Below, piece by piece: positions 18,733 to 50,946 of a stretch of 52,890 nucleotides of DNA; the first letter of the stretch is position 1; each line of letters starts with the position of its first letter. The stretch is from Gemmatimonadales bacterium. Its GTDB lineage: Bacteria > Gemmatimonadota > Gemmatimonadetes > Gemmatimonadales > GWC2-71-9. Made by a program: the position numbers and the translations under genes. Under the pieces are notes generated by a model. It did no database searches and had not been told where the DNA came from. It saw only the letters and a program-made list of their open reading frames with translations. The stretch is from positions 1 through 52,890 of the forward strand of contig DASVGF010000082.1 of the NCBI GenBank assembly GCA_036379675.1, in the 5' to 3' direction.

Positions 18733-19359
18733 TTACCGCACCAACCTGGGGCTCGCTCGCATTCCACCTACCACTCCGTCCGCCTCGCAGTGTGCGTCGT
18801 CCTCGCTGTAAACCACGCAGAACACCCCGTCAGCATGCCAGCGATCATACCAGAGTCGCATGGCAATCCGGTCCTGAGCGGAGAACCGGGTGGAGGGCCG
18901 GTCATCGGTGTACATGGCGATGTGGCTGTGGACGGTACCGGACCACTGAGGCGGGCCGCACGTGTCCACCGACGCGACGGCGGAGATGCCCATCGAGTCC
19001 GCGTCCTCGGGAGGGAGCGGCGCAATGGCGGTGACGAACACCGTGTCATTGCGGATCGTGGCGGCGAGGCAGGCCACGCGCTCCTCCCGCGCCGCCAGAC
19101 TGGCATACCAGAGCTCCCGGAGCGCGTGCCCCGCTTCCTTGCTGAACCGGAACTTGGCCCGGGACGTAGCCGCCTGATGCTGGGCCGCGAGCGGCGCGGT
19201 CCACCCCGCCAGCAGGAGCAGGAACAGCGTGCCGTGCCGCAGGAGCGCGGGGGTCAGTAGCGCGAGCGGGGAAAGAGTACCGCGCCGCGGGGGCCTTCGA
19301 TCTCGCAGATGACCTCCTGAGCGGTATACAGCAGACAGAAGATCCCGTCCACCTTCCAT
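18733..19359 (-). CDS. Secreted Cys-containing JAB/MPN-like protein, paralog 2 (last gene of the xox operon)
   Basis: This is the C-terminal part of ORF 18733..20112. The first canonical in-frame ATG is at 19359. A signal-peptide-like TPALLRHGTLFLLLLAGWTAPLAAQ begins at a CTG (19257) overlapping the paralog-1 stop (CTGA). Core: ERVACLA...DSMGISA...CGPPQWSGTVHSH...FSAQDR...DGVFC...CE. Confidence 0.55.
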   Translation of the reverse strand: MEGGRDLLSAVYRSGGHLRDRRPPRRGTLSPLALLTPALLRHGTLFLLLLAGWTAPLAAQHQAATSRAKFRFSKEAGHALRELWYASLAAREERVACLAATIRNDTVFVTAIAPLPPEDADSMGISAVASVDTCGPPQWSGTVHSHIAMYTDDRPSTRFSAQDRIAMRLWYDRWHADGVFCVVYSEDDAHCEADGVVGGMRASPRLVR

Positions 19360-19754
19360 CGTCTCCACCAGAGCATCATGATGCCCCGGTCGGCCCCCGA
19401 GAAGAGCGAATAGGGCTGCCGTCCATCGCGGAGAGCCACGTGCGTGTGCACGGTTCCCCGCCAGGCCGGCGGCCGGCACAGCTCCAGGGACGTACCCGCC
19501 GATATGCCGAGCGAGTCGGAATACCCGGGCTGGAGCGCATACACGCCGGTGATCCGGACGGTATCGCTTTCGATTTCGCCGGCCAGGCAGGCCACCCGCT
19601 CGGCCTTGGCCTCCATGCTCTCGTCCCACAGCCGGTGCAGCTCGGGTGTGGCCGCCGGCTCGAATTGAAAGGCGCGCGGGATTCTCCCTGCACTCGCCGT
19701 AACCAGCAGCAGGGCCATCCCCGCGATCGGTATCCATCGCCACCGTCGTGTCAT
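19254..19754 (-). CDS. Secreted Cys-containing JAB/MPN-like protein, paralog 1
   Basis: 166 aa. Signal peptide MTRRWRWIPIAGMALLLVTASAG. Core: ERVACLAGEI...DSLGISA...CRPPAWRGTVHTH...FSGADR...DGIFC...CE. Clearly paralogous to the next gene. Confidence 0.6.
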   Translation of the reverse strand: MTRRWRWIPIAGMALLLVTASAGRIPRAFQFEPAATPELHRLWDESMEAKAERVACLAGEIESDTVRITGVYALQPGYSDSLGISAGTSLELCRPPAWRGTVHTHVALRDGRQPYSLFSGADRGIMMLWWRRWKVDGIFCLLYTAQEVICEIEGPRGAVLFPRSRY

Positions 19755-19760
19755 GGGACG

Positions 19761-20858
19761 CTACGAGCCCGAAGGCCCGACCGCCACGCCCCAGGGGATC
19801 GTGCCTGCCGGAATCTTCTTGAGCACTTTCATAGTCTCGGTATCCACCACGGAAACATCGTTCGACGGGCCATTTGCCGTGTACAGCTTCCGTCCGTCCG
19901 AGGTGAGCCCGATTCCCCAGGGACGCTGTCCCACCGGCGTGGTGGACGTGACGGTGTTGGTCGAGGCATCGATGACAGACACGGTGCCGCCGCGTCCGTT
20001 GGCGACATACACCCGCTTCCCGTCGGGCGACACCACCACTCCCATGGGCTTGGACCCCTCCGGCAGCTTGATCACCCTGGTGGTCTTGCGGGTGGGCACG
20101 TCGATCACCCACACCGTGCCGTCGACCTCGGCGGTGACGTAGGCATGACTTCCATCGGGCGAGAACGCCAGATCGCGCGGGCGCTTTCCTACCGGGATAG
20201 AGCCTACCACCTTCCGGGTTTTCGTGTCGATCAGCGTCAGGTTGTGGTCGGTCTCGCCGGTGACGTACACCAACGCGCCGTCCGGCTGAAGTCGTACACC
20301 CTCGGGCTCCCGTCCAACCGTCAGCGTCGACTGCACCTTCCCGCTCTCTACGTCCACGATGGAGGCGGTGTGGGCATCCTCGTTGGACACGAAGAGCGTC
20401 TTGCCGTCCCGGCTGATGTCGAAGGCCTCCGGATCTGATCCGCCCGGGAGGACCCGGACCGTCTTCCGGGTGCCGACGTCAACCACGGCAATGCCGTCCT
20501 TGCTCTTGTCCGACTTGAGCTTCTCACACTCCTCGTCCGGCATGGTCGGCGGGCACTTGGGCGACCCGCTCAAGGCCACAAACACTGTCTTGCCGTCGGG
20601 CGAAAGCCGCACACCGCGCGGGCGGGTGCCCACCGGAATAGTGGCTACTACACTATCCGTACGGGTGTCGATGACGGTGAGTTCCTGGGAGTCCTCGTTG
20701 GTAATGTAGGCCAGTTCGCCCGATGGCAGCGCCCTGGCTTCGGCTGCGGGTGCGGTGTCCGTGCGGCCGCCGAGTGAGGGCTGGTCGGTCCCGCACGACG
20801 CCAGCAGCACCGGAAGGGCACGGGAGGCGAGGGCACGAATGGAAGCGCTAGCGAGCAT
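19761..20858 (-). CDS. YVTN-family beta-propeller repeat lipoprotein (the type associated with PQQ-dependent catabolism)
   Basis: ORF 19761..20921, trimmed to ATG 20858, which gives the lipobox MLASASIRALASRALPVLLASC. Repeated ~40-aa units (YVTNEDS..., VFVSNEDA..., VYVTGETD..., AYVTAEVD..., VYVANGRG..., LYTANGPS...). Confidence 0.85.
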   Translation of the reverse strand: MLASASIRALASRALPVLLASCGTDQPSLGGRTDTAPAAEARALPSGELAYITNEDSQELTVIDTRTDSVVATIPVGTRPRGVRLSPDGKTVFVALSGSPKCPPTMPDEECEKLKSDKSKDGIAVVDVGTRKTVRVLPGGSDPEAFDISRDGKTLFVSNEDAHTASIVDVESGKVQSTLTVGREPEGVRLQPDGALVYVTGETDHNLTLIDTKTRKVVGSIPVGKRPRDLAFSPDGSHAYVTAEVDGTVWVIDVPTRKTTRVIKLPEGSKPMGVVVSPDGKRVYVANGRGGTVSVIDASTNTVTSTTPVGQRPWGIGLTSDGRKLYTANGPSNDVSVVDTETMKVLKKIPAGTIPWGVAVGPSGS

Positions 20859-21693
20859 CGAAAATCGCCTTGTCACGGTTACGGGCCTGGTCCAATCCCA
20901 CGATCTGCTCGCGACCCACAATCCCGGTGAGCACGGCCCCGGCCAGATCGGCCTTGTCCAGCTTCGCCCCGGTGAGGTCGGCGCCGGACAGATCGGCCTG
21001 AATCAACTCGGTATTTCTCAGGTCGGTACCGCGCAGCTTGGCCCGGCTCAGGTTGGCGTGCGAGAGGTCGGCCTTGAAGAGGTTGGCGCCTGACAGGTCG
21101 GCCCCGCTCAGGTCGGCGCCCACGAACGTGGCGCGCATGACACCCATCGACTGGTTGCCCGGGTCCGCGCCCATGTTGGCGTTCCGCAGGTTGGCGCCGG
21201 CCAACTTGGCGGAGCGGAGATACCCGATGATGCGTGTGTCCGGCAGCTGGGCCCCGCGCAGGTCGGCGGCCTCGATGATGGTGGCGAAGAGGCTGGCGCC
21301 GGCCAGATTGGCTCCTGCGAGGTTGGCGCGGCGCAGCACCGACCCGTCCAGGTTGGCCTTGGACAGGTCGGCCCCGGGCAGCACCGCATCGGTAAGGTCG
21401 CAGGTGAAGAGGTTGGCCCCGGCCAGCCGGGCATTACTCAGCCGGGCACCGGTGAGGTTGGCCCGCTTGAAGTCCACGCCGCCCAGATCCAGACCGCTGA
21501 GGTCGGTGCGCGAAAGATCGGGAGGGTTGGACTCCGTACCTGAGGCCAGCCGGGCCTTCGTCTGGGCGAGTGTCAGCCGAACAGTGGGAGAATCAACCGC
21601 GGTCTGGGGCAAACGCCGGGCGCCCGACGCGGATGCATCGGGCGCGGTCAGCGCTACCAGGGCGAGGAAGGTGAGAGCCGGCCGGGTCCGCAT
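20848..21693 (-). CDS. Secreted pentapeptide-repeat protein
   Basis: Signal peptide MRTRPALTFLALVALTAPDASASG, then about 40 A(D/N)LxG pentapeptide units (ANLTGARLSNARLAGANLFTCDLTDA...). Confidence 0.85.
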   Translation of the reverse strand: MRTRPALTFLALVALTAPDASASGARRLPQTAVDSPTVRLTLAQTKARLASGTESNPPDLSRTDLSGLDLGGVDFKRANLTGARLSNARLAGANLFTCDLTDAVLPGADLSKANLDGSVLRRANLAGANLAGASLFATIIEAADLRGAQLPDTRIIGYLRSAKLAGANLRNANMGADPGNQSMGVMRATFVGADLSGADLSGANLFKADLSHANLSRAKLRGTDLRNTELIQADLSGADLTGAKLDKADLAGAVLTGIVGREQIVGLDQARNRDKAIFDAR

Positions 21694-21731: not shown

Positions 21732-22175
21732 CTACGCTCCCGGCTTCCGTGCCGGGCGGCCGGGCGACAGCTTGGCGTCGCTCCGTCCCTTCACGTAGGC
21801 GTAGATCTTCTCTATGGTGGGAAGCTCCATGCCGAGGGCGCACCATGACGGCATGCCGTTGGCGGGGCGGCCGGCACATACGGTCTGGACGAACAGCTCT
21901 TTGGTATTGACCGGCCCCTCGGGCTTGAGGGACAGGATCAGATGGGGGGCAATGGTGGTGCCCAGGACGTCCTCGCCGTGGCACCGGGCGCAGTTCAGGT
22001 TGTACTGCTTCCATCCGTCGTACACTTCCTGGGAGACGGTGTCACGAGGCGCCGAATGGTACTGGTCCCGGAGCTCCTGGGCGCCGGCGGCCGGCGCCGT
22101 GGCGCTCCCCAGACCCAGCAGGATGACGGTTGCCAGCAGGACATGCCGGACGGTGATCGGGAGGGGCGTACGCAT
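21732..22175 (-). CDS. xoxG: Methanol-metabolism-type c-type cytochrome (XoxG/cytochrome cL-like; four-Cys type)
   Basis: Signal peptide, heme motif CARCHG, and two extra conserved Cys (VCAGRPANGMPSWC). It sits directly downstream of xoxJ. Confidence 0.8.
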   Translation of the reverse strand: MRTPLPITVRHVLLATVILLGLGSATAPAAGAQELRDQYHSAPRDTVSQEVYDGWKQYNLNCARCHGEDVLGTTIAPHLILSLKPEGPVNTKELFVQTVCAGRPANGMPSWCALGMELPTIEKIYAYVKGRSDAKLSPGRPARKPGA

Positions 22176-22247: not shown

Positions 22248-23162
22248 CTAGCGCGTAGCTCGTCCCGAGTCGGATACCGGCGGAGACGCCGCCCCGGTCT
22301 GCTTCGGCCCATCGTCCTCCTTGGCCGGGGCGACAATCGGAAACATGGGCACACTGTATTCCTTGAGAATCGCCTGAATCTCGGGGCCCTTGCGGTCCAG
22401 CACCGTCTGCAGGCTGTCCCGCAGCGCTCGATCCCGGCGCCGTACGCCCATACCGATGCTGAAGCGAAACGGAAAATCGGTGACTGAGTCCCGTTCGGCC
22501 AGTGGCTGCAGCGTCAGGGGCACCGGCGATCGTTTGGCGAAGTAGCCTGCCAGCGGACCCCAGGCGATCGCCACGTCGATCTCCTTGTTCGCCACCGCAT
22601 TCACGATGTCTTCCGGGCGGATGCTGTCGGTATAGAACGTGGGGTACCCGGTGAGGTTGCCCACCACGCCGTATTGGCTCAGGGCCATGGCCGGGGGCGT
22701 GTTCTCCGCGTCGGAGTTCAGGATGTTGACCCCGATCTTGAGCTTCTTCAGCCGAGGGTCGGCCAGCGACCGGATATCCAGCCCCCGGTCCTTGCGGGTG
22801 ACGAATACGTAGCCGGAGCGGAAGTAGGGCTTGGTGACTCCGGCCATGTCGAATTCGGCCGGCGCCTGGATGGCGATGTCGCAGTAGCGGCCGTTCAACG
22901 CCCGGGCAAAGAAGCCCCGCCTGACCGGCCACCAGGCATACTCGATTTTCGCGTTCCATTCCCGGGCCACCAGCTCGGCGATCTTCTGCTCGAAGCCCTC
23001 ACCCTTCTGGTTGGACAGCGGCATGTTGTCGGGATCGGCGCAGACGCGCATGACCCCGGGCTTGGCCAGGTTGGGGCGCAACTGCGCTGGGGCCCGCCGC
23101 GGGGCGGCCAGAGCGGTGACGAGGATCAGGCCGGTGACACTCAGGAACAATCGCTGCTTCAT
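22248..23162 (-). CDS. xoxJ: Quinoprotein-dehydrogenase-associated periplasmic binding protein (MxaJ/XoxJ family)
   Basis: ORF 22248..23228, trimmed to ATG 23162 (signal peptide MKQRLFLSVTGLILVTALAAPRRAPAQ; GGAG upstream). MRVCADPDNMPLSN plus an SBP type-3 fold pattern. Confidence 0.85.
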   Translation of the reverse strand: MKQRLFLSVTGLILVTALAAPRRAPAQLRPNLAKPGVMRVCADPDNMPLSNQKGEGFEQKIAELVAREWNAKIEYAWWPVRRGFFARALNGRYCDIAIQAPAEFDMAGVTKPYFRSGYVFVTRKDRGLDIRSLADPRLKKLKIGVNILNSDAENTPPAMALSQYGVVGNLTGYPTFYTDSIRPEDIVNAVANKEIDVAIAWGPLAGYFAKRSPVPLTLQPLAERDSVTDFPFRFSIGMGVRRRDRALRDSLQTVLDRKGPEIQAILKEYSVPMFPIVAPAKEDDGPKQTGAASPPVSDSGRATR

Positions 23163-25100: not shown

Positions 25101-25678
25101 AACTAACCTCAGGGAAAAGGGTGATTCTCCTGCTCTACTGCCATTCGTGTCATGACGCGGAAACACTGACTGCTCGCTACAGGGCTGCCACCTGCGCCGG
25201 ACGCCCCACCGGAGGACTGCGCTCGACCATCGGGAGCATCCACCGCCGCAGCGCCGCTCTGGCGCGGCCAGCCGGCCGATGGGAGCTCGCGCGAGGATGA
25301 GACAGGGACCGATGATGGGTGAGGCGGGAGAAGGCCGACAATTGGAGCGCGGGGACAGACCTGCAGAGGTGCATCGCCAAGGCGGAGCGCCGCCAGTATT
25401 CCTCTGGCCAGCGGCCACACGCCGCATTGACTCGCGACGGGTTCAGCATCGATGAAATAGTTCCACCGAACGGGAACAAGCCCATTTCATCCCTCAGCGA
25501 CGCCACTGAACTACATGATGTATCAGTAATGGACCAGACTCGAGGAGGCGGCCGCCATCGCGTGCTTCAGACCGCCGTGGGGTTCTCAGGTTCCTCCCCG
25601 AAAGGGGAGCGGGCCAGCGCGATGGGCTTGCCTCTCAAAAACCTGCCAGTTCGCCGATTACGGGAGACTAGGGGGGTC

Positions 25679-25707
25679 AGTATACACCCCGAAAAATGAA
25701 CTGTCAA
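25679..25707 (-). promoter_or_regulatory. Near-consensus sigma70-type promoter directed toward xoxF
   Basis: On the minus strand: TTGACA (25707-25702), 17 nt, TATACT (25684-25679). It lies in an AT-rich pocket 19 nt past the mptG stop and about 580 nt upstream of the xoxF ATG. Confidence 0.45.
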
Positions 25708-25726: not shown

Positions 25727-26683
25727 TTACCCCCTCCAGACCCGGGCTCCGGTCGGGGCAAACCCCCCCTCAAAAACCACCCCCCCCGGGCCCATGGCTT
25801 CCCGGACCCGGGTGGCCAGCTCCCGGGCCTCCTCCTGGCTCGCAACCAGGCCATAGACCGCCGGCCCCCAGGAGCTCTGCCCCACGCCGGCGGCTCCCCA
25901 GGCTGCCATGCGCTCCACCAGCCGTTCCGAGGGCCCTGGGGCGAAAACCCCGCCCTGCTCCTGGGCAAACCAGCCGCCGGTGATGCGCTGGACCGCGGAA
26001 AGCGCCTGGCCGAAGCTCGCCAGATCTCCCTCCACGAGCGCGGGCAGGAGCTGCATCAGCACCAGATGGGATACCCGCTCCGGGTCGCCGGCGGGCGGCG
26101 GCGGGAGCTGGTCGAAGGCGCGGGCTTCGGCGGCTCCGCTCAACCCCCGGGCTCCGTGAGGCACCGCCACCACGTATCGCCAGCTTTCGGGAATGGCGAA
26201 CCGCGCGAGCAGCGGCGCCATATCTTCGCTGCCGAGCCGCCGCCCCCCTTCTACGATGAAGCCTCCCAGCGCAAACGTCCACGTCCCAATGGCCGAGCGC
26301 TTGCCCCGGCCCACGGCGCCGGCCAGCTCCACGGGATCCGCGGGAATTCCGTGAAGCTCAGCCAGGGCGCGGGCGACCCCGAGCCCAAGCTGGGTTCCCG
26401 AGCCGAGTCCGGTGTGGCTCGGGATGGCCCGGTGCACCACCAGCTGGGCCGCCCCGGGCAGTCCTCTGGCATCCAGAAACCGGCGGGCAAACTCGGCCGC
26501 ACGGCCCCCGTCGGGCCCCTCAAACGACATCCGCTGCGCCGGCGTGACCTCGAGCAGAAGGGATGGGCAGGGGATGGCTGCGCCGAGGCCGCCGAAGCTC
26601 CGCCCCAGGCCGCCGGTGAGATCGAGGACCCCGAAGTGCAGGCGCGCGGGCGCCTCGACGAAGACGCTACCGCGACTGGACAT
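25727..26683 (-). CDS. mptG: Beta-ribofuranosylaminobenzene 5'-phosphate synthase (H4MPT biosynthesis; GHMP-kinase fold)
   Basis: ORF 25727..26917, trimmed to ATG 26683. MSSRGSVFVEAPARLHFGVLDLTGGLGRSFGGLGAAI and HTGLGSGTQLGL motifs. Confidence 0.85.
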   Translation of the reverse strand: MSSRGSVFVEAPARLHFGVLDLTGGLGRSFGGLGAAIPCPSLLLEVTPAQRMSFEGPDGGRAAEFARRFLDARGLPGAAQLVVHRAIPSHTGLGSGTQLGLGVARALAELHGIPADPVELAGAVGRGKRSAIGTWTFALGGFIVEGGRRLGSEDMAPLLARFAIPESWRYVVAVPHGARGLSGAAEARAFDQLPPPPAGDPERVSHLVLMQLLPALVEGDLASFGQALSAVQRITGGWFAQEQGGVFAPGPSERLVERMAAWGAAGVGQSSWGPAVYGLVASQEEARELATRVREAMGPGGVVFEGGFAPTGARVWRG

Positions 26684-27212
26684 AGCGGGTGAGCATCTCC
26701 ATGGCTTCTCGCTCGCGGGGGCCGGCGGTCTTGTCCACCAGCACCTGGAGCCGGGCAAACTCCTCCCTGATCTGTTCGGGCGGCAGCAGGTGGGTGCGGG
26801 TGGCGAGGATGGCGGCCTCGAGCACGGCGTGCTTGGCGCGGTTGAAGCCGATGAACTCGCGCTTGAGCCCGCGGTGAACCACCCGAGCCTCGATGCGGGA
26901 TCGCGGTGGAGTGGCATCGATGGTCAGCACCTCCAGCTCTCGCCACGAGCAGGCTGCCTCGAGCACCACGCCCCGGACGACCGTGGCCGGAACCGATGGG
27001 AATTGGGGACTGGAAATGGCGCCCTGGGCAAGGAGCATCGCGTCGTCGGTGAGATTCACGACCGCCGTGCGGGTGGCGCTCACGTTGCGGAAGGTGGTGG
27101 TCTCCAGAAAGGGCTTGAGGACGATGATCTCGTGCCCCCACTCCACTCCCATGGGAGCGAAATTTATCGCCCCGGTTTGGTCCATGGACGTCACGATCGC
27201 CTCGACGATCAC
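26667..27212 (-). CDS. DUF447 family protein (flavin-reductase-like fold; associated with H4MPT clusters)
   Basis: C-terminal 181 aa of ORF 26667..27650. The GTG at 27212 overlaps the pabA stop (GTGA). VIVEAIVTSMDQTGAINFAPMGV... Confidence 0.8.
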   Translation of the reverse strand: MIVEAIVTSMDQTGAINFAPMGVEWGHEIIVLKPFLETTTFRNVSATRTAVVNLTDDAMLLAQGAISSPQFPSVPATVVRGVVLEAACSWRELEVLTIDATPPRSRIEARVVHRGLKREFIGFNRAKHAVLEAAILATRTHLLPPEQIREEFARLQVLVDKTAGPREREAMEMLTRYVQSR

Positions 27213-27883: not shown

Positions 27884-29370
27884 GACTCGCGACTCTCGAC
27901 TAACGTCTCAATCAATCCGCGCGCCTTGTCCAGCGTCTCCCGGTATTCCAGCTCGGGATCCGAATCGGCCACGATGCCCCCGCCTGCCTGGAAGTATATC
28001 TGCCCGCGGAGAGCCAGATAGGTGCGGATGACGATGCTGGTGTCCATGGCGCCGGTGGCGCTGATGTAGCCGATAGACCCGCAGTACACGCCCCGCTGGG
28101 TAGGCTCGAGCTCCGCGATGATCTCCATGGCGCGCACCTTCGGCGCGCCGGTGATCGAGCCACCCGGGAAGGCGGCGCGGATCACGTCCGCCGCATCGGC
28201 ACCCGGCTCCAGCTCCCCTATGACGGTCGAGACCAGGTGATGCACCGTCGGGTGATGCTCCAGGGCAAAGAGCTCGGGGACCCTGACGGTGCCCGGCCGG
28301 CACACGCGGGAGAGGTCGTTCCGCAGGAGATCCACGATCATCACGTTCTCGGCCCGATCCTTTTGACTCTCAGCCAGGGCCCGGCCCAGCGCCGCGTCGT
28401 GCATGGGGCCGAGTCCCCGGGGCCGGGTGCCCTTGATGGGACGGGTCTCGATGCTGCGCCGGTCTCCATCCAGCCGGAGGAACCGCTCGGGTGAGGCGCT
28501 CACCACCGCCATGTCAGCGAAATCGAGATAGGCGGCAAACGGCGCCGGGTTGTGTCGCCGGAGCCGGCGATACAGGTCGAACGGCGGCTCATCGAGACGC
28601 CCTTCGAACCGCTGGGACAGGTTGGCCTGAAAGATGTCGCCGGCGACGATGTAGTCGCGCACCCGGGCGACGGCGTCGAGATATCCGCGATGGGTAAAGG
28701 TGGAGCGCAGTCCGATCTTTTCTGCCGCTTCGATCCCGGCAACAGGGTAGGAGGGCGCCAGCCCGGTCGGGGGCAATCCCGGTATGCCTCCCCGCTTCCC
28801 CGCTTCCCCTCCTACCCGCTTACCCCTCAGGCGCTCCCGGACCATGGCCAGCCGCTCTCGCGCCCGGGCCTCCTGGGACGCCCCGGTCTCGGGGAGTCCG
28901 GTTGAGATCACCCATGCCTGGCCGGCCCGGTGGTCCCACGCGATCACCCAGTCGTACAGACCGAGCACGACGTCGGGTATGGCGAGGTCATCGTACCGCG
29001 GACGGGGCAGCCGTTCGAGCACCGCGCCCCAGTCGTAGCCGATGTATCCCGCAAGGCCGCCCTGAAATGGCGGAAGGCCAGGCAGCGGGGCCGCCGGCTC
29101 GGCCGGCAACACGCCCCGGGCGACCGCGAGCGCGTCACCAGTGACGCCGGCCCATACTCCGTTCTGAAGAACTTCGGTGCTGGCGCCTTTGCTCCGTACC
29201 ACCCGCACCGGGTCTGCGGCGAGAAAGGAGTACTGGGCATCGGGGTGCTGCTGCATGGCGGCGCTGTCGAGCAACAGCACGTAGGGAAGATCGAGGAACT
29301 GAGCGCACACCTGCACTGGATCCAGCATCCCGCCAAGGGGCTCGGCCAGCGGTCGGGAGCCGGTGCTCAT
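27880..29370 (-). CDS. pabB: Aminodeoxychorismate synthase component I (chorismate-binding enzyme)
   Basis: SPERFL, PIKGTRPRG, FPGGSITGAPK and YCGSIGY motifs. The ATG overlaps the upstream stop (ATGA). Confidence 0.85.
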   Translation of the reverse strand: MSTGSRPLAEPLGGMLDPVQVCAQFLDLPYVLLLDSAAMQQHPDAQYSFLAADPVRVVRSKGASTEVLQNGVWAGVTGDALAVARGVLPAEPAAPLPGLPPFQGGLAGYIGYDWGAVLERLPRPRYDDLAIPDVVLGLYDWVIAWDHRAGQAWVISTGLPETGASQEARARERLAMVRERLRGKRVGGEAGKRGGIPGLPPTGLAPSYPVAGIEAAEKIGLRSTFTHRGYLDAVARVRDYIVAGDIFQANLSQRFEGRLDEPPFDLYRRLRRHNPAPFAAYLDFADMAVVSASPERFLRLDGDRRSIETRPIKGTRPRGLGPMHDAALGRALAESQKDRAENVMIVDLLRNDLSRVCRPGTVRVPELFALEHHPTVHHLVSTVIGELEPGADAADVIRAAFPGGSITGAPKVRAMEIIAELEPTQRGVYCGSIGYISATGAMDTSIVIRTYLALRGQIYFQAGGGIVADSDPELEYRETLDKARGLIETLVESRES

Positions 29371-30908: not shown

Positions 30909-31271
30909 CTACCTCGGATCCCCCGACCGCACCCACTTGTTGGGCGTGCCCTCGAGCGCGCCACCTTCGGGCTTCCAGAGGATGGCGTCCTCGATCTTGC
31001 GGGCCAGCTCGAAGTCCTTGTCGGTGATGCCCCCGGCGGCATGGTTCTGCAGCTTCACGGTGACCCTGCCCCAGGTAACGGTCAGGTCGGGATGGTGGTA
31101 CGCGGCTTCGGCCAGGTAGCCCACCGCATTGACCAGCATGAGGGTGGTGGGCCAGCCATCGGTCTTGTAGACCCGGCGAATCCAGCCGTCCTCGTAGTAC
31201 CAGCCGGGGAGCTCCTTGAGCCGCTCGGCGATCTCGGTGTCGTTGTAAGTGCGCTCTTTGGTTGCGGGCAT
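30909..31271 (-). CDS. phhB: 4a-hydroxytetrahydrobiopterin (pterin-4a-carbinolamine) dehydratase
   Basis: C-terminal 120 aa of ORF 30909..32105. ATG 31271 behind GGAGG. LKELPGWYYEDGWIRRVYKT...EAAYHHPDLTVTWGRVTVKLQNH. Confidence 0.9.
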   Translation of the reverse strand: MPATKERTYNDTEIAERLKELPGWYYEDGWIRRVYKTDGWPTTLMLVNAVGYLAEAAYHHPDLTVTWGRVTVKLQNHAAGGITDKDFELARKIEDAILWKPEGGALEGTPNKWVRSGDPR

Positions 31272-31303
31272 TGTGCCTCCTTGTTTTATGAGCTGGGAGC
31301 TAG

Positions 31304-41551: not shown

Positions 41552-42532
41552 TTAGGTGTACAGCGATGCTTCAAGCACTTCGGGGTTGAGGTGTCCCGCA
41601 TGGAACGTTCTGCCGGTCTCGGTACTGGTGAGCCAGACCTCGGCCGGGCTGAACAGCAGCGGATCGATCTTGTAGAAATCTCCGCCGTAGCGCTGAAAGA
41701 TCTCGTAGAACGGGGTGCCGTAGTCCCGTGAGGCGCTGGCCGGAACCTTCTCGGCCAGCTGCTCCAGCTCGGCGTCGCCGGCGCGAATGGTAAAGCGGGC
41801 CTGGCCGCCGTACAGTATGCAGTCGTTGGTGCGGCCGATCGCCCGAAGATCGTTCTTGGCCACGGGAGGCAACGGGGCCGTTCCCATGGCGCTGATGACC
41901 CGCCGCACATCGAATCCCAGCGTTTCCATCTTGTGCAGGCCGGTCTCGACGATGCGGGCGGAAATCTGCACCCCTCCCGCCAGGCTGGCGGTGGGCGCCA
42001 CAACGAAGGTGATCTGCATTGGCTGCAATCGCGCCTTGTCGGCCACCCACTGGGCCACCTCATCGGTGGGGAGGGTACGGCCCTCGAGCACCAGCACGCC
42101 TTCGTCGGCCTGTTCTTCGTAGCCCAGCTTCTCGAAGAGCTCGCGCTCCACCCGGGCGTGCGCCCGAAGGGGCCCGGAGCCCATCGCGAAGAATTTGCCT
42201 ACCGAGATTGCCCACCCCGCGTACTGGGATGCCATGCACGCCACGGCGGGATGGTCGGTCCAGACAATCAGGCCGGGGTGAGAGTTACCTCCGATCTGCA
42301 CCGGCGTGCAGCTGACGTTGCCGAGGCCGCCCAGGCAGATTTCGGCCAGCGCCAGCCCGGCCTCGATGCCCCCCTCCACTTCCACCCCCGCGTCGATGAC
42401 CCGCGCGCCGCTGGGCAGCCGGTGGGTCTGGGCCCGAAGCATGTCCGACTCATCGGCCATGTGGTCGGCGATTTCCACTGCCGCTTCGTTCATTCGAAGT
42501 GCGGTCATTCGGAGTGCGGTCACGCTGTCCAT
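41552..42532 (-). CDS. mch: Methenyl-tetrahydromethanopterin cyclohydrolase
   Basis: 326 aa. ATG 42532 behind AAGGGAGAG, overlapping the fhcC 3' end by 13 nt. Typical Mch sequence (GARVIDAGVEVEGGIEAGLALAEICLGGLG...). Confidence 0.9.
   Translation of the reverse strand: MDSVTALRMTALRMNEAAVEIADHMADESDMLRAQTHRLPSGARVIDAGVEVEGGIEAGLALAEICLGGLGNVSCTPVQIGGNSHPGLIVWTDHPAVACMASQYAGWAISVGKFFAMGSGPLRAHARVERELFEKLGYEEQADEGVLVLEGRTLPTDEVAQWVADKARLQPMQITFVVAPTASLAGGVQISARIVETGLHKMETLGFDVRRVISAMGTAPLPPVAKNDLRAIGRTNDCILYGGQARFTIRAGDAELEQLAEKVPASASRDYGTPFYEIFQRYGGDFYKIDPLLFSPAEVWLTSTETGRTFHAGHLNPEVLEASLYT
42491..42520 (-). repeat. 15-bp tandem duplication at the mch 5' end
   Basis: cattcgaagtgcggt / cattcggagtgcggt (one mismatch). 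It encodes TALRM-TALRM and creates two additional in-frame ATGs. Confidence 0.7.
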
Positions 42533-43281
42533 GCGAGAATCTCTCCCTTTCCCAGCTCAGCCATGTCGCCGCTGTAGCGGCGGTAAGTGCCGGTCAGATG
42601 CCGGCGCCGGACAGGCAGGCCGTAGTGGTCCTGCAGGCGGGTCAGCAGCAGCCGAAGATGCACCGGCTGATAGGTGCAGGCATAGGCGTAGGTCACCGGC
42701 GGAGTAATCGCTCCGAGGGCGACCACCGTACCCCGTTTGGACCAGAGCCCGGTGTCGGCGCCGGCTGCGCCGAACACCACGACCGTCCCCGCTATCATGC
42801 CCAGCCCGGCCTGACTCCCTGCGTGTCCGCCAATGGCGAGCAGGCCTCGGCGCATGCCGGCCCCGGCCTCGGGTCCTGCCGAGCCGCGCACGATCAGCTC
42901 ACCGCCGGCCATGCCTCTCTTATGACCCAGCGGCGCGGCCCCCGCGCGCGGGCCGGCATCGCCGTGGATATCCAGAACGCCGCCGGCGAGGCCCATTCCT
43001 GCCTCCTGGCCAACGTTCCCCTCCACCGTGACCCTGCCTTCGGCAAGCCCCGCGCCCAGGCGGTCGGCGTGGGCCAGGTCGCCGCTCAAGCGGATCCGCC
43101 CGTCCGGGGCTCCCGTGATCTCGAAGAGATCGCCGAAGGAAACCTTTCCGTCGCGGATGAGGTAGACCGGCCGTGCGGCCATCTCCGTGGCCGACAGGGT
43201 GCTCCAGGGAGCGGCCAGGACTTCCGAGAAATCACCCCGCTGGAGCAGCGGCATGCGCAAGCTGGCAACGAGGCCGCTCAC
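42520..43281 (-). CDS. fhcC: Formyltransferase/hydrolase complex subunit C (formylmethanofuran dehydrogenase subunit C homolog)
   Basis: C-terminal 253 aa of ORF 42520..43872. The GTG at 43281 overlaps the fhcD stop (GTGA). Gly-rich beta-helix repeats (GNVGQEAGMGLAGGVLDIHGDAGPRAG...). Confidence 0.85.
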   Translation of the reverse strand: MSGLVASLRMPLLQRGDFSEVLAAPWSTLSATEMAARPVYLIRDGKVSFGDLFEITGAPDGRIRLSGDLAHADRLGAGLAEGRVTVEGNVGQEAGMGLAGGVLDIHGDAGPRAGAAPLGHKRGMAGGELIVRGSAGPEAGAGMRRGLLAIGGHAGSQAGLGMIAGTVVVFGAAGADTGLWSKRGTVVALGAITPPVTYAYACTYQPVHLRLLLTRLQDHYGLPVRRRHLTGTYRRYSGDMAELGKGEILAWTA

Positions 43282-44180
43282 CCGCCGGCTCCGTCCATGA
43301 TCCTGCGCAGGTGAAAGTGGTGGGGGCCGAGCTTGCCCCCGTAATTGCCGGCGCTGATGGACACCACCCCGTCCCGGCACGCGGCATCGATGCCGGTACG
43401 CATGGCCCCCGCGATGGAGGGCGCATCCACGCCGTTGATGACGATCTCGAGCACCGAGTTGACGCCTTCCGGCAGGGCCGATTTGGTAATCGCGCGCAGG
43501 GTGGGACAGAAGGCGTCGTTGGTGGACGCAATCATGGACTTGATCCGCCGGGAGCCGACCTTGCTTCCGCTCCGGACCACGCCGCCGGGAAAGGGCAGGA
43601 TCACATCGGGCAGCGAGGCCATGGCATCGGCGGCGGCTTCGGCCGCGCCGAGGGCGGCGTCGGCGCTGCGGGCGAGGATCAGGAAATTTCCGCCGCCGAC
43701 ACCCTTTACCATGCCGAACTTTTCCTGGACCAGAAACTCCCCTTCCATGACCGGGATTCTCCAGAACCGTTCGCCGGCCACCACCTTGCTGATCTGGAAC
43801 CCGTCGCCGAAGAACCGGAGGGCCGACCCTACGCCCACGCGGTCGGGAGCGCCGGGCAGCCCGTCGTAGCATGCCGTCGTGGGGCAGGTGAGCACGGTTT
43901 GCCCGATACGCTCGATCAGGCGCTTGGGCAGGTCGTCCTTGCCCATCGTCATCAACAAAATGCTGGCTCCGGGGCGGCCGTCGGGCGTGTCTGCCGGCGG
44001 AAGCTCCCGCTCGACACCGGCCTCGACCTTGCAGCCGATCACCGACGTCGCAAACCCGGTGAGCTTGAGCGCGGCCGCCCGCACCCAGCGAAGGCTCCGG
44101 CCGGTGATGATGATGCGCGCGACGCGCATCGTAAACGCCTCGGCAAAGGTGTCTTCGATCAGCACGCCACGAATCTTCAT
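43278..44180 (-). CDS. fhcD: Formylmethanofuran:tetrahydromethanopterin formyltransferase (Fhc subunit D)
   Basis: 300 aa. MKIRGVLIEDTFAEAFTMRVARIIITG..., Ftr family. Confidence 0.9.
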   Translation of the reverse strand: MKIRGVLIEDTFAEAFTMRVARIIITGRSLRWVRAAALKLTGFATSVIGCKVEAGVERELPPADTPDGRPGASILLMTMGKDDLPKRLIERIGQTVLTCPTTACYDGLPGAPDRVGVGSALRFFGDGFQISKVVAGERFWRIPVMEGEFLVQEKFGMVKGVGGGNFLILARSADAALGAAEAAADAMASLPDVILPFPGGVVRSGSKVGSRRIKSMIASTNDAFCPTLRAITKSALPEGVNSVLEIVINGVDAPSIAGAMRTGIDAACRDGVVSISAGNYGGKLGPHHFHLRRIMDGAGG

Positions 44181-45796
44181 AGGCCCTGCACCGGATAGTT
44201 CTCGAACGACACGGTCGAATACGCTTCGAAGTAGCGTCGAAGATCGGGCAGCAGCGCTGGATCGTAGCCCGGTCGCACCTGGAGCCGGCGTCCGGCCGGC
44301 GCCCGCCGGAGCTGTCCCTCTTCCACCACCAGCGATCCGGCTTTGATCACGTACCGGGGTGTGGCGAACATCCGGGCGATGTCGGCATCGCGGGCGTAGA
44401 TGGTCACATCGGCATCGGCCCCGACCCCCAGGTGGCCCTTCTGGCGGAGCCCGAGCAGGCGGGCCGGGCCGGCGCGGGTGATGATCGCGATCTCGTTCAG
44501 CGTGTACTCCCGGGAGAGCCCGTCGGCCAGGGCGGACCCGGCGAGCAGCTTGGGGTTCACCTGCTTGAGCCGTTCATCGCGGACACTCCGGTCCATCAAC
44601 AGCTGAATCAGCGCCGGATAGGAGAGAAAAGAGCCGCCGTTGGGGTGGTCGGTGGAGAGCACTACCCGCCACGGGTCTTTGCTGAGCAGAAAGAGCTCCA
44701 GGCCAATGGCCCATTGCAGGGAAGCGACCGCCGCCTTGTCCTTGTACATGAAGGGAACGATGCCGCAGCCGGTCTCCAGCTCGATGTCGATGTTCACCCA
44801 TTTCCGCCCGGTGCTCTTGTGCAGGAGGTACTCGACCGGCCCATCGGCCGTGATCGTCGCCGCCGGGCCGAACATCACCTGGCCCACGTCCACGCTGAGC
44901 TCCGGATGGTCGTTCACGTATTCGGTCAGCGGCACCGCCCCGGAACTCCAGGCGGGCCCCCCATAGGCATGAAACTGCAGGTGGGTGAAGTGAGCGCGCC
45001 GGCCGGAGAGCGCCTGCATGGTGGCCAGCGTGGTGGTCACGTTGCCCGGCTGGCCGAGGTTGTTGCAATGGATGTGGACCGGATGCGGCAGCTCGAGACG
45101 GTTGGCCGCGTCGGCCAGGGTTTCCAGGATGGCTCGGGGCGTCACCCCGGTCGTGGCCAGAGGCTCGTCCAGGTCCTTCAGATTGCGCTGGCCCGACTTC
45201 CACGCCTCGATGCCGCCCGGATTGACGATCTTGATGGCATACCCGCCGGTTACTCCGAGGAGCCAGGCGGCATAGTCGCGTGCCCGCTCCCGCTCGCCCG
45301 CCGCCACCTGGCGGAGCAGATACTCGTCGTTCCCCATCAGCACGAACATCCCGCCATCCACGCAGGGAGTGTCATCCATCTCCGCGTGGCTGTGGCGCGC
45401 CATGAGGGGAGCCACCGCGGCGTCGAACACGGTGGTGTACCCCAGGCCGGCGTAGCGGTACCCGGTGGTAAAGGTGGTGGGGACCGTGCCACCCGTGCCC
45501 GACCGCGGGGGACCGTCGCTCTCTTCGAGTGCGGGCGCCGGCGCGGGATCCGCCGAGTGTTCCTCCGGGAGAAGGCGGCGGGCGTGATTGCAGCTCGAGC
45601 TGGCAAAATGGGAGTGGATATCCACCCCCCCAGGCATGACGATCATCCCGCGCGCGTCGAGCGCCGGCGCTCCATCGGGCACACTCGCTACCACGCGGCC
45701 GTCCTCGATGCAGATGTCGCGCACCTCCCCATCCACCCCGTTGGCGGGGTCGTGCACGGTCCCACCGGTTATGCGAAGGCGGCTCGGCGCACTCAT
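44177..45796 (-). CDS. fhcA: Fhc subunit A (formylmethanofuran dehydrogenase subunit A homolog, amidohydrolase fold)
   Basis: 539 aa. GMIVMPGGVDIHSHF metal-binding motif. FwdA-like throughout. Confidence 0.9.
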   Translation of the reverse strand: MSAPSRLRITGGTVHDPANGVDGEVRDICIEDGRVVASVPDGAPALDARGMIVMPGGVDIHSHFASSSCNHARRLLPEEHSADPAPAPALEESDGPPRSGTGGTVPTTFTTGYRYAGLGYTTVFDAAVAPLMARHSHAEMDDTPCVDGGMFVLMGNDEYLLRQVAAGERERARDYAAWLLGVTGGYAIKIVNPGGIEAWKSGQRNLKDLDEPLATTGVTPRAILETLADAANRLELPHPVHIHCNNLGQPGNVTTTLATMQALSGRRAHFTHLQFHAYGGPAWSSGAVPLTEYVNDHPELSVDVGQVMFGPAATITADGPVEYLLHKSTGRKWVNIDIELETGCGIVPFMYKDKAAVASLQWAIGLELFLLSKDPWRVVLSTDHPNGGSFLSYPALIQLLMDRSVRDERLKQVNPKLLAGSALADGLSREYTLNEIAIITRAGPARLLGLRQKGHLGVGADADVTIYARDADIARMFATPRYVIKAGSLVVEEGQLRRAPAGRRLQVRPGYDPALLPDLRRYFEAYSTVSFENYPVQGL

Positions 45797-47070
45797 TTCC
45801 GCCTGCCTCCGATACTGGCGCGGAGCGAGTCGATCAACGCGGCCAACGTTTGGGTTGCGGTGCGCTGCGCGGCGAGTGGCGGTCGAAGCGGGAGGGGCAC
45901 TTCATCCATCCGGTAGGCGGTTCCACCTTCGTGGATGCCGGCTACACCGGTGTCGATGGCGACCTGCGGCTTGAAGCCAGCCTCGGATGCCCTGGGTCCG
46001 ATGACTACTGTCCTGATCCGGGCAAGCGCCGCGGAAGCCTGGTCACTGACCGCCGGGGCCCCCACTACGAGTGCGGCCTCGAAGCTGCCGGCCAGCAGCC
46101 GGTCCAGGCCGCGCTGGCCGGGCTCGTAGGACGGGTAGCCGCGCGAGTAATCGACGGCGAATGGGAAGCCGGTTTGCCAGGTCAGCACTGCGTCTGCTCC
46201 CGGGCGGTTACCACCCGCCCGCAGGCTGCTGAGCGCGGCGCGAGTTGGGCCGTTCAGGGCCTGCGCCAGCGCGATCAACCCCTCCACCCGGCGAGGATTC
46301 CGCTCCTCGGCGGTCGGCTCCGCGTCATGGACCAGGACGGCGTAGCGCGCGCCCGAGAGCCTGGGTGCGAGAGCCACCGCCTGCCTCAACCCGGGCGAGA
46401 GCTCACCGGCGGGCGGGGCGGACGCCAGGGCCGCACGGATGAGCGAAAGCGCCGCAATCTCCTCGCCGGGCTCGAGCGACATCGTGAGATCCGCATCTGC
46501 CGGTCCCCGGTCGGCGCCGATGGAGACCGAGATGACGAACCGCCCGGCGCGCCCCTGGGGGACATGAGTGCCGGAGGGCTCGGGCGCGTAGCGTGAGGCA
46601 TACCGGGGATAGCGTTGCCGCGGATCCACACCCCAGAAGAGCACAACGTCCGCCCGATTCCGCACTTCGCCCAGCGTTGCGGTTGCCCGGCCCCGGCGCT
46701 GCGCCGCGAGGAGACCAGCGGCGGCCGTGTCGGACGTAGCGGTGTCCACCCGAGCCCCGAGGATATCGGCGACCGTGACCGCCATCCGTTGGGCCTGGGT
46801 GCTGAGGTCAGGGCCCAGGTATACCAGGACTCGGCCCCGGGATTCGAGGAGCAGAGTGGCGGCCCCCGCCGTCGCCTCTTCGACCGCCACCGGCTGACCG
46901 GCGAGACGCACCTCCCACGGCACCGACCCGTCGCCCAGCCAGACCTTCTCCACCGGGCATGCCGGGTCGGCCTCGACGATCCTCTCATTGCGCAGCGTCA
47001 CGGTGATGTCGTCACAGCCGCAACCGCAGCCCAGGCAGGTGATCCGTTCCACCCGGTCCGGCGGAGTCAT
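45793..47070 (-). CDS. fhcB: Fhc subunit B (formylmethanofuran dehydrogenase subunit B homolog)
   Basis: ORF 45793..47142, trimmed to ATG 47070, which overlaps the upstream stop (ATGA). ITCLGCGCGCDDITV N-terminal Cys cluster. Confidence 0.85.
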   Translation of the reverse strand: MTPPDRVERITCLGCGCGCDDITVTLRNERIVEADPACPVEKVWLGDGSVPWEVRLAGQPVAVEEATAGAATLLLESRGRVLVYLGPDLSTQAQRMAVTVADILGARVDTATSDTAAAGLLAAQRRGRATATLGEVRNRADVVLFWGVDPRQRYPRYASRYAPEPSGTHVPQGRAGRFVISVSIGADRGPADADLTMSLEPGEEIAALSLIRAALASAPPAGELSPGLRQAVALAPRLSGARYAVLVHDAEPTAEERNPRRVEGLIALAQALNGPTRAALSSLRAGGNRPGADAVLTWQTGFPFAVDYSRGYPSYEPGQRGLDRLLAGSFEAALVVGAPAVSDQASAALARIRTVVIGPRASEAGFKPQVAIDTGVAGIHEGGTAYRMDEVPLPLRPPLAAQRTATQTLAALIDSLRASIGGRRK

Positions 47071-49256: not shown

Positions 49257-50129
49257 CTACTTCTTGACCGTGACCAGCTCCCGGGCGATCTCCGCGATGG
49301 CTTCCGCATCCAGAACCAGATCGTTGCGGGTGAACAGCCGGGCGACGCAGGCCTTGTGGAGCTTGGTCTTGAAGTTGCCGACCCCAAACGCGCCGAACAC
49401 GACGACGCCGCTTTTCTTTACCCCCGCATCGTTGACGTCGATGCCCTCGATGCCCAGCGGCGGGACGGCGTTGAGATCCACCGCGACTTTCAGCGACTTG
49501 CTGCCGGTCCACGCCGACTGGGGCACCATCTGCACCCCAGCGGGCCCCGAGTTGAGGAGGATCTCGACCCCTTGCAGCAGCTCCGGCAGCTTGGAGGGGT
49601 CGTTCAACGTGACGGCTTCCACCTGAACATTGAAGCGGGCGCTGATGAACTGGCGCGCCTTGTCGCCCTGTTCCGGTTTCCGCGAGGTGATGGTGACCTG
49701 GGCGCCGTCCTTGGCGAGGAGGCCCGCTGCCCGCTGGCCCACCGGACCGGTCCCGGCCAGGATCAACGCGTTCTTGCCCTCGAGGTTCCCCAGCGTCTCC
49801 TCGATCTTGACCACCGCCGCCACGGCAGTGGTGTTGGAGCCGTTCGAGTCCAGCATGATCGAGACCGAGAACGGCGGGAACAGGGCATCCTGCGCCATAG
49901 CCAGGAGTTGTTCGCCGGCAGACATGTTGTTGCCGCCGATCCAGACGGCGGTGTTGCGCAGGTCTTTGGGGCCGCGGGTAAAGATGCAGCCGTGAATGAG
50001 GTCGCGGACGTCACCCTCAGTGACTCCCCCGTAGCTCATGATGGCCTCGGCACCGGCGTCATAAGCCACGACCTGGTCGAAAACGCTCGGCAGCCGTGAG
50101 CTGTCGAGTTGCAGCAGAAGCTTACGCAT
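49257..50129 (-). CDS. mtdB: NAD(P)-dependent methylene-tetrahydromethanopterin dehydrogenase (MtdA/MtdB family)
   Basis: 290 aa. MRKLLLQLDSSRLPSVFDQVVAYDAGAEAIMSYGGV... and the LILAGTGPVGQRAA Rossmann motif. Confidence 0.9.
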   Translation of the reverse strand: MRKLLLQLDSSRLPSVFDQVVAYDAGAEAIMSYGGVTEGDVRDLIHGCIFTRGPKDLRNTAVWIGGNNMSAGEQLLAMAQDALFPPFSVSIMLDSNGSNTTAVAAVVKIEETLGNLEGKNALILAGTGPVGQRAAGLLAKDGAQVTITSRKPEQGDKARQFISARFNVQVEAVTLNDPSKLPELLQGVEILLNSGPAGVQMVPQSAWTGSKSLKVAVDLNAVPPLGIEGIDVNDAGVKKSGVVVFGAFGVGNFKTKLHKACVARLFTRNDLVLDAEAIAEIARELVTVKK

Positions 50130-50151
50130 CGAAACAACGTCTCCCGGTAGG

Positions 50152-50195
50152 CTGTAAAAGACGAGGGGCGCCCCAGTAGCGGGCCGCCCCTCGTC
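50152..50195 (-). terminator. Intrinsic terminator/attenuator between fae and mtdB
   Basis: On the minus strand: GACGAGGGGCG...CGCCCCTCGTC, a perfect 11-bp GC-rich stem (50195-50185 / 50170-50160) extendable to about 14 bp. It is followed immediately by TTTT (50159-50156) and lies 28 nt after the fae stop. Confidence 0.7.
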
Positions 50196-50222
50196 GGATC
50201 TCAGTTGAGCGGGACTGTACGA

Positions 50223-50735
50223 TCAGCCCTCGGCGCCGCTCGCAAACGGGTGCCGCGCCGCCTTGTACTTCTGCAGCACCTCGTCAATGCTGGGCTTGTT
50301 CTGGATGGCCCGCTGCAACGCTTCCTTGGTGGCCTGGTAGTTGTAGTCGTAAATCTTCTTGTCGCTCTCCGCCTGCCAGTGGATGAATACGCCCACCAGG
50401 ATGCACAGATCGTTGGCCTTGCTCTTGTCGATCACGCCCGACGCGACGCTGTCCATGACGGCGCGCGCAACGGCGGCCTGGGCCGGCCCGAACATCTGTA
50501 CCGCCTGCTTGGCACCCTTGATGGTGACCTTGTTGAAGAGCAGGGTGTCGGGCTTGGCCGGAAGGTTCGGGGTGACGACCGCGAGAAGGGTTGAGAAGCC
50601 ATCGGAATTGTGCGATAACGCCGAGGTAAACGCGAGACCCGCTGGTCCCGACTTGGAGCCGACGATCAGGTCGATGTGGGCGATTTCGTTGCCGTCGCCG
50701 ACCAGCGACTCACCGATGCTGAATTCCCCTGCCAT
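50223..50735 (-). CDS. fae: Formaldehyde-activating enzyme
   Basis: ORF 50223..50870, trimmed to ATG 50735 behind GGAGG. MAGEFSIGESLVGDGNEIAHIDLIVGSKSGPAG...TPNLPAKPDTLLFNKVTIKG... Confidence 0.95.
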   Translation of the reverse strand: MAGEFSIGESLVGDGNEIAHIDLIVGSKSGPAGLAFTSALSHNSDGFSTLLAVVTPNLPAKPDTLLFNKVTIKGAKQAVQMFGPAQAAVARAVMDSVASGVIDKSKANDLCILVGVFIHWQAESDKKIYDYNYQATKEALQRAIQNKPSIDEVLQKYKAARHPFASGAEG

Positions 50736-50917
50736 ACTTGCCTCCGTATCCGTTTTGTTGAAGAAGGAGAGAATTTCGCGCCACATGGTTGACTCGACGT
50801 TGGCGTAGGGTTGAGCTCGGACCAGGAGCGGCGTGCGGGAACGGACAACCCGGCTCACGCAGTCCCGCAAGGCGGGTAGCTCAGCGCACTGATTACTGTG
50901 CCGTCGTAGAGAGGCCT

Positions 50918-50946
50918 AGTATGAAACCCGTATCAGAAAGTGTCAA
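50918..50946 (-). promoter_or_regulatory. Sigma70-type promoter for fae
   Basis: On the minus strand: TTGACA (50946-50941), 17 nt, CATACT (50923-50918), about 183 nt upstream of the fae ATG. Same architecture as the xoxF promoter. Confidence 0.4.

Follow-up and report, generated by a model that had tools for sequence, protein, structure and literature searches.

Do the genes for methanol and formaldehyde oxidation that lie together on a contig from a Gemmatimonadales bacterium make up one route from methanol to formate, and is their arrangement new? The genes occupy positions 18733-50946 of contig DASVGF010000082.1 (assembly GCA_036379675.1), within a stretch of 52,890 nt – the window – that was analysed as a whole. 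An earlier annotation of the same letters, here called the original prediction, had read them as an unusual fusion of XoxF-type methanol oxidation, formaldehyde oxidation linked to tetrahydromethanopterin (H4MPT) and synthesis of the cofactors, in a host that might be little studied and non-proteobacterial. We put at roughly 0.85 the probability that the block is a methanol-oxidation island typical of its lineage, in an uncultured Gemmatimonadales bacterium; the only item in it that may be new is a conserved leader open reading frame (ORF) ahead of xoxF.

Because the window has a G+C content of 67% and contains many spurious long ORFs, genes were chosen by third-position G+C (GC3). The chosen genes were then scanned against Pfam and NCBIfam, and curated equivalog cut-offs were applied. 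Every gene class named in the original prediction was found where it had been placed, in a contiguous and mostly co-oriented block, and the core genes are backed by the curated cut-offs: these were passed by Fae, Mch, FhcA, FhcC, FhcD, the TIGR03123 protein, PabB, the MptG family, XoxF and the XoxJ-like protein. Nearly all genes are on the minus strand; the HisA/F-like gene, the gene for a HAMP-GAF-GGDEF-EAL protein and mfnB are on the plus strand. Read along the minus strand, the order is that of Table 1: from a promoter and fae to mch, on to the MfnE-like kinase, through the two adjacent plus-strand genes to mptG, and from a second promoter and a small ORF through xoxF to two paralogous genes for small secreted proteins.

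The gene classes stood, whereas three of the proposed ORFs did not. A 714-aa ORF for xoxF was rejected, since a GAGG ribosome-binding site stands ahead of the ATG at 25100 and the 109 codons before that ATG look like junk; a 459-aa ORF at 18733-20112 covers two tandem paralogous genes whose products are 44% identical (E 9e-42); and a 398-aa ORF at 30909-32105 holds both a pterin-4a-carbinolamine dehydratase gene and a short-chain dehydrogenase (SDR) gene. These last two genes and one with tandem EthD domains had been left off the list, and the GGDEF-EAL gene, thought to flank the block, lies inside it.

XoxF-type enzymes carry an extra aspartate two residues past the catalytic aspartate, at a position where the calcium-dependent MxaF has alanine. 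The window protein reads DEWDYDG here, in agreement with the D-F/Y-D found at the same position in the lanthanide enzymes 6oc5, 4mae and 6dam – its best matches among solved structures – and in contrast to DYA in MxaF (1lrw). It also matches the Pfam family of pyrroloquinoline quinone (PQQ) enzymes (E 4e-58) and has the active-site vicinal Cys-Cys pair (PIACCDLVNRG), in line with the CC found in structures of both XoxF and MxaF. The NCBIfam model that it passes, TIGR03075, spans the entire methanol/ethanol dehydrogenase family, and substrate range is not readable from sequence: the protein might thus be a broader-range lanthanide alcohol dehydrogenase of the ExaF/PedH-like kind, with a main substrate other than methanol. 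We consider this very unlikely, given scores of 600-750 bits to XoxF and MxaF structures against 297-382 bits to ethanol-type enzymes, a gene adjoined by those for XoxJ and a cytochrome c, and its linkage to the genes of formaldehyde oxidation.

The family assignments support the route that had been drawn, from methanol via formaldehyde to formate with the cofactor genes alongside. In the periplasm the lanthanide-dependent PQQ enzyme XoxF would oxidise methanol to formaldehyde. XoxJ, a c-type cytochrome and four accessory proteins that are secreted would work with it, and the electrons would pass from XoxF to the cytochrome. In the cytoplasm Fae would condense formaldehyde with H4MPT, after which the Mtd-family dehydrogenase, Mch and Fhc would carry the one-carbon unit from methylene- through methenyl- to formyl-H4MPT and, via a formylated furan cofactor, to formate. 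The remaining genes of the block would supply H4MPT and the furan cofactor, and transcription would start from two conserved, near-consensus sigma-70 promoters, one serving a run of 13 genes headed by fae and the other a leader ORF and xoxF. The enzyme activities, the lanthanide dependence, the operon structure and the use in growth that this scheme implies are ones that we infer from the families to which the proteins belong and from proteomics published on related organisms.

If the block is typical of its lineage, the same arrangement should recur in relatives. MfnB lies mid-block, so that a locus extending 10 kb to either side reaches both xoxF and mch, and it was therefore used as the query against a genome collection. 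The query returned 80 loci, nearly all from Gemmatimonadales metagenome-assembled genomes (MAGs), and all window proteins were compared with them by tblastn. Among the 44 loci of at least 20 kb, 34 have xoxF and mch within 20 kb, and on all 34 of these species-representative contigs the genes from xoxJ to fhcC stand in the order and orientation of the window. Of these 34 loci, 27 have the GGDEF-EAL gene in its place, and 32 have the EthD gene, which lies between the RimK-type ligase gene and mch. In two relatives single contigs, each covered by overlapping loci (L009 with L084; L003 with L085), carry the entire span from xoxJ to fae, and also a large PD40/Tricorn/Omp85 gene beyond fae. The gene identities and this synteny are direct observations.

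Among the species representatives, Danish 'MFD' MAGs of Gemmatimonadales, such as L027, come closest to the window. In L001 (ERZ25039550 contig_5111) and other 'MFD' loci some genes are split or frameshifted, among them pabB, the prolyl oligopeptidase gene and, in L023 and L031, the leader ORF discussed below; sequencing or assembly error is one possible cause, and genes or motifs missing from those loci are therefore not to be over-read.

That the fused arrangement is unusual could not be upheld, since a close relative with the same fusion was already on record in 2016. Butterfield et al. (2016; PeerJ 4:e2687), in their text on Fig. S3, describe a Gemmatimonadetes contig that has H4MPT biosynthesis genes directly upstream of xoxF and also carries fae, mtdB, fhc and mch. 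The island adds no new biology to that description and to many public MAGs. What it does provide is a further instance of an abundant group of soil bacteria, the Gemmatimonadales, with a complete module for lanthanide-dependent methanol oxidation and H4MPT, which bears on methanol turnover in soil and on attempts to cultivate Gemmatimonadales with lanthanides.

The relatives also bear on the host and on the origin of the block. Those of XoxF reach 98% identity (87% among those with a source name) and those of Mch 95% (88-89% with a source name), and the closest source-named relatives of both are Gemmatimonadales or Gemmatimonadota MAG proteins. By these proteins and the syntenic loci the host is assigned to an uncultured soil Gemmatimonadales bacterium, as the expectation of a little-studied, non-proteobacterial lineage had it.

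H4MPT genes are patchily spread over bacterial phyla, and alphaproteobacterial loci have many of the same genes as the window; both facts would suit a mobile island recently acquired from a proteobacterial methylotroph. Such an origin is highly improbable: G+C is even along the window (0.63-0.70), the window has no tRNA genes, no integrase or transposase families occur among the Pfam hits of the scanned ORFs, and for these reasons the block is read as resident chromosome rather than a recent insertion. Moreover, the flanking genes for DoxX, prolyl oligopeptidase, phosphofructokinase and OmpA-TSP3 are syntenic in relatives, occurring with xox and H4MPT biosynthesis genes on the contigs of L001 and L002; the arrangement is conserved over many species of the order; and alphaproteobacterial homologs are just 31-64% identical to the window proteins. 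Four alphaproteobacterial and acidobacteriotal loci (L073, L074, L079 and L080) have many H4MPT genes and no xoxF within 10 kb, so that the direct junction of xoxF and mptG is a trait of this order and not a universal one.

Several observations weigh against a methanol-oxidation island in the full sense. FhcB, the MfnE-like protein, MfnB, the dihydropteroate-synthase-like protein, the HisA/F-related protein and the RimK-type ligase score below their NCBIfam equivalog cut-offs, and the Mtd gene is assigned to its family and not to the MtdA, MtdB or MtdC subtype. The scan of the window ORFs found no genes for pqq, formate dehydrogenase or assimilation – as had been stated before – and the window therefore cannot demonstrate growth on methanol; in the literature considered no culture of this lineage is shown growing on methanol.

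The lack of formate dehydrogenase and assimilation genes in the window also fits a role in detoxification of formaldehyde and methanol or in auxiliary energy supply, in which co-oxidation would take methanol to formate and CO2 with no growth on its carbon. The H4MPT clusters that have no neighbouring xoxF (the four loci above) show that the module occurs in varied contexts, as such a role would allow. We judge this unlikely. XoxF is tightly linked to the full set of cofactor biosynthesis genes over dozens of species, and the text of Butterfield et al. (2016) reports that other parts of Gemmatimonadetes genomes encode PQQ synthesis and a pathway from tetrahydrofolate to serine and ranks Gemmatimonadetes methanol dehydrogenase with the proteins of highest abundance in soil proteomes. 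A methanol-oxidation island remains our preferred reading.

Within the H4MPT genes, neighbouring fhc genes (42520..47070), which encode the formyltransferase/hydrolase complex, overlap by four bases, and fhcB, whose full-length match falls short of its cut-off, keeps its location between fhcA and the ATP-grasp gene in relatives. The start of Fae is ambiguous because of a conserved N-terminal extension: translation from an alternative in-frame ATG, at 50786, would lengthen the protein by MWREILSFFNKTDTEAS, this upstream ATG is present in many but not all related loci, and in many metagenome loci the extension is conserved at the amino acid level with synonymous changes. The fae leader of about 180 nt (window 50736-50946, minus strand) is almost unchanged in three relatives.

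Some cofactor labels were revised on the strength of work on methylofuran in Methylobacterium extorquens. The bacterial cofactor is methylofuran; in M. extorquens the RimK-like Orf5 is the glutamate ligase MyfB, OrfY is MyfA and Orf22 is MfnB, and methylofuran cannot be made without the HisA/F-like Orf17. The families first named are present; by analogy, however, the gene labelled mptN is more likely MyfB-like (NF040720 261 against a cut-off of 350, with a pass for the wider RimK family), and the HisA/F-like gene is taken to correspond to Orf17. The MfnE-like protein likewise passes for the wider AA_kinase family and scores 79 against 300 with NF040622. PabAB, MptG, the dihydropteroate-synthase-like protein, DUF447 and the PTPS-like protein would belong to the pterin side, where the CitG-like protein is tentatively placed; for the furan (methylofuran) side we propose MfnB, the MfnE-like and MfnF-like proteins, the Orf17 homolog and the ATP-grasp ligases. 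No DHFR-like family was found among the Pfam hits of the scanned ORFs, and one might speculate that the SDR is a pterin reductase. The mid-island position of the GGDEF-EAL gene may point to a connection of c-di-GMP signalling with one-carbon metabolism.

The promoters of xoxF and fae, described in the original prediction as matched, are the two best sigma-70 matches within about 35 kb. Both are near consensus and conserved: the xoxF-side match occurs in 41 of 42 aligned intergenic regions, and in related loci the fae promoter keeps its place 170-186 nt upstream of fae. Apart from the hexamers of the consensus and the 17-nt spacing, the two bear no resemblance to each other. Transcription is predicted to begin near 50911 on the fae side and near 25672 on the xoxF side. 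From the fae promoter 13 co-oriented genes run from fae to the PTPS-like gene with several four-base overlaps, an organization that suggests one long transcript.

Between mptG and xoxF – a spacer of 236-799 bp in 45 loci – lies the conserved upstream ORF (uORF). The distance from the promoter to a GAGG ribosome-binding site and ATG is about 180-208 nt in 28 of the 34 sequences with both features and 123-148 nt in the other six. Across sequences the uORF has 40-157 codons, with a conserved N-terminus, MG(L/V)FP(F/L)A, a middle part variable in sequence and length, and a conserved C-terminal motif, typically RRWMLPTVERGPP, which is ERGPP in most relatives and ERSPP in the window, where the RSPP codons lie at 25210-25224. 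The motif (ER[GS][PQ][PL] or ER[GS]PP) occurs in 31 of 42 sequences, at least 23 of which (27 by inspection) have it in the reading frame of the conserved start. In its five codons, third positions account for 47 of 54 minor-allele counts and all four glycine and proline codons are used. This pattern indicates that selection acts on the peptide and not on the RNA, with the qualification that the motif itself was used to choose the sequences and non-synonymous change was thereby excluded by construction. A profile of 18 uORF peptides matches about 70 "hypothetical proteins", and in each of three independent metagenome contexts examined the uORF stands between mptG and xoxF.

These features recall a known class of regulatory peptide. 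RGPP is a published ribosome-arrest motif, with the most robust arrest of the RAPP-like sequences in reporter assays, and small RAPP/RGPP ORFs precede genes of many functions, metal-related ones included (Fujiwara et al. 2025). Like the arrest peptides ApdA, ApdP, ApcA and CruR (Fujiwara et al. 2024, 2025), the uORF is small, lies directly upstream of the gene that it presumably regulates and in the same orientation, and combines a conserved Arg-Gly-Pro-Pro near the C-terminus with a variable body. It could therefore encode a nascent peptide that stalls the ribosome at Arg-Gly/Ser-Pro-Pro and tunes xoxF translation or the fate of the transcript, an idea that is possible and, on present evidence, doubtful. 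Three observations were counted against it. The window copy has RSPP in place of RGPP, a variant that does occur in published clusters of upstream ORFs with RAPP-like motifs. Unlike most described members, the uORF has no evident signal peptide or membrane segment: by inspection its N-terminus, MGLFPFGGTISSMLNPSRV, lacks a charged n-region followed by a long hydrophobic stretch. Finally, no conserved RNA structure was found that a stalled ribosome might open. Fujiwara et al. (2025) make no mention of PQQ enzymes, methanol or Gemmatimonadota, and a literature search joining xoxF with arrest peptides, leader peptides or upstream ORFs gave nothing relevant among the ten results listed. Were the idea correct, a lanthanide enzyme would be under the control of an arrest peptide, perhaps in answer to a metal, methanol-derived or secretion signal, and the mode of xoxF regulation would be unrelated to the two-component systems known in Proteobacteria. 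The RGPP-type leader ORF is the only lead in the block with some discovery value, and provides a testable hypothesis on the regulation of methanol dehydrogenase.

A riboswitch-like element in the xoxF leader was considered and rejected, since fold and covariation tests stayed at control level: RNAalifold gave just a 4-bp CCUC:GAGG pairing, covariation in two hand-drawn hairpins did not exceed that in shuffled controls, and the region from the uORF to xoxF folded no better than shuffles (z = 0.44). Throughout the window, no match attained the gathering score of its Rfam family. The inverted repeat TCAGYG(N0-6)CRCTGA occurs twice in the 52.9-kb window, once in each leader (25494-25509 and 50881-50892), with 0.19 occurrences expected by chance, a figure that overstates the significance, the pattern having been defined after the sites were seen. 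It may act as an operator common to both leaders or form a hairpin in the RNA.

The remaining features are those of Table 1. The two tandem secreted paralogs (about 165 aa each) have signal-like N-termini and an HxH...S..D motif, and no Pfam or NCBIfam match. Near the expected start of the second (18733-19258) there is no in-frame ATG, GTG or TTG; a CTG overlaps the TGA stop of the upstream paralog.

Table 1. Features of the block, listed in minus-strand order from the fae promoter; scores are in bits, followed by the family cut-off where one applies.
Feature	Position	Strand	Evidence
sigma-70-type promoter of the fae operon	50946..50918	-	TTGACA-17-CATACT, 10/12 consensus positions
Fae, formaldehyde-activating enzyme	50223..50735	-	TIGR03126 243 (118)
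methylene-H4MPT dehydrogenase, Mtd family (family-level call, MtdA/B/C)	49257..50129	-	Pfam Mpt_N 112; MtdA structures full-length, E 6e-78
DUF1464 protein	48202-49254	-	Pfam/NCBIfam scan
ATP-grasp protein	47067-~48209	-	Pfam/NCBIfam scan
FhcB	45793-47070	-	TIGR03129 262, below cut-off (327.8); full-length, E 7e-78
FhcA	44177-45796	-	TIGR03121 683.5 (393)
FhcD	43278-44180	-	TIGR03119 422 (293); also scored at 438 (297)
FhcC	42520-43281	-	TIGR03122 146 (131)
Mch, methenyl-H4MPT cyclohydrolase	41552..42532	-	TIGR03120 416 (229)
protein with two tandem EthD domains	40761..41537	-	Pfam EthD, TIGR02118
RimK-type glutamate ligase, MptN/MyfB type	39891-40760	-	RimK family
CitG-like	39046-39894	-	Pfam/NCBIfam scan
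PTPS-like	38532-39035	-	Pfam/NCBIfam scan
HisA/HisF-related protein, Orf17-like	37756..38559	+	Pfam His_biosynth
MfnF-like protein	36693-37730	-	TIGR03123 284.5 (244)
MfnE-like amino-acid-kinase-family protein	36142-~36696/36810	-	AA_kinase
HAMP-GAF-GGDEF-EAL signalling protein	32994..36152	+	Pfam; same position in 27/34 related loci
MfnB-type 4-HFC-P synthase (furan moiety of cofactor)	32139..32891	+	Pfam 4HFCP_synth 181.7
short-chain dehydrogenase (SDR), adjoins Pterin_4a gene	31304-32053	-	Pfam/NCBIfam scan
pterin-4a-carbinolamine dehydratase (Pterin_4a)	30909-31271	-	Pfam scan
dihydropteroate-synthase-like protein	29367..30878	-	Pfam DUF6513 and Pterin_bind; TIGR00284 201.8, below cut-off (256.7)
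PabB, aminodeoxychorismate synthase	27880-29370	-	Pfam Chorismate_bind; TIGR00553 370 (328)
PabA, aminodeoxychorismate synthase	27209-27883	-	Pfam GATase
DUF447 protein	26667..27212	-	Pfam DUF447_N, DUF447_C
MptG-like beta-RFAP synthase, start approximate	25727..26758	-	TIGR00144 155.8 (113.5)
sigma-70-type promoter of the uORF-xoxF unit	25707..25679	-	TTGACA-17-TATACT, 11/12 consensus positions
uORF, 102 aa, N-terminus MGLFPF, C-terminal motif ERSPP	25177..25485	-	conserved in relatives
XoxF, lanthanide-type PQQ methanol dehydrogenase, 605 aa	23283..25100	-	TIGR03075 684.5 (480)
XoxJ-like periplasmic binding protein	22248..23162	-	TIGR03871 270.6 (212)
c-type cytochrome, XoxG-like	21732..22175	-	Pfam Cytochrome_CBB3; TIGR03874 match weak
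pentapeptide-repeat protein with signal peptide	20848..21693	-	Pfam Pentapeptide, E 9e-47
beta-propeller protein, PQQ-dependent-catabolism-associated type	19761..20858	-	TIGR03866 268.9, slightly below cut-off (287); Pfam YNCE, Lactonase
accessory secreted protein, first of two tandem paralogs, 166 aa, signal-like N-terminus	19254..19754	-	translation
accessory secreted protein, second tandem paralog, HxH...S..D motif, start uncertain	18733..19258 (~19258)	-	GC3 frame signal 0.9

Compared with known systems, the window stands nearest to the Gemmatimonadetes contig of Butterfield et al. (2016): by the text description of Fig. S3 the phylum and the gene neighbourhood are the same, and the species differs. 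The cluster is also carried by the MAG of isolate AG12 (L064), whose XoxF is 74% identical to that of the window; its scaffold name points to a soil series sampled by depth, as theirs was.

The contrast once drawn with M. extorquens, in which the xox and H4MPT genes were said to lie in separate loci, was overstated. The locus tags of strain AM1, as quoted in later papers, place XoxF (META1_1740), Mch (META1_1763) and Fae (META1_1766) about 25 tags apart, and the xox cluster of strain PA1 belongs to that strain's largest methylotrophy island: as in the window, XoxF, Mch and Fae are near one another. The 'archaeal-like' cofactor set (Orf5/MyfB, OrfY/MyfA, Orf17 and Orf22/MfnB) is shared with Methylobacterium/Methylorubrum as well. 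The differences are that xoxF in the window directly adjoins mptG and that the island adds the GGDEF-EAL, tandem-EthD and SDR genes and the small leader ORF. In M. extorquens the serine-cycle and pqq genes also lie in the same region, and the window has neither.

More widely, the 'archaeal-like' H4MPT/methylofuran clusters of Proteobacteria and Planctomycetes share with the window the families Fae, Mtd, Mch, FhcABCD, MptG, dihydropteroate-synthase-like, DUF447 and PTPS-like, and further the CitG-like, HisA/F-like, MfnB, MfnE/F-like and ATP-grasp ligase families. The alphaproteobacterial loci L073, L079 and L080 have many of the H4MPT families of the window within 20 kb; unlike the window, these loci have no EthD or SDR genes in addition to lacking a nearby xoxF. 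Set beside these systems, the xoxF-H4MPT arrangement has been known since 2016 and is ordinary for this lineage.

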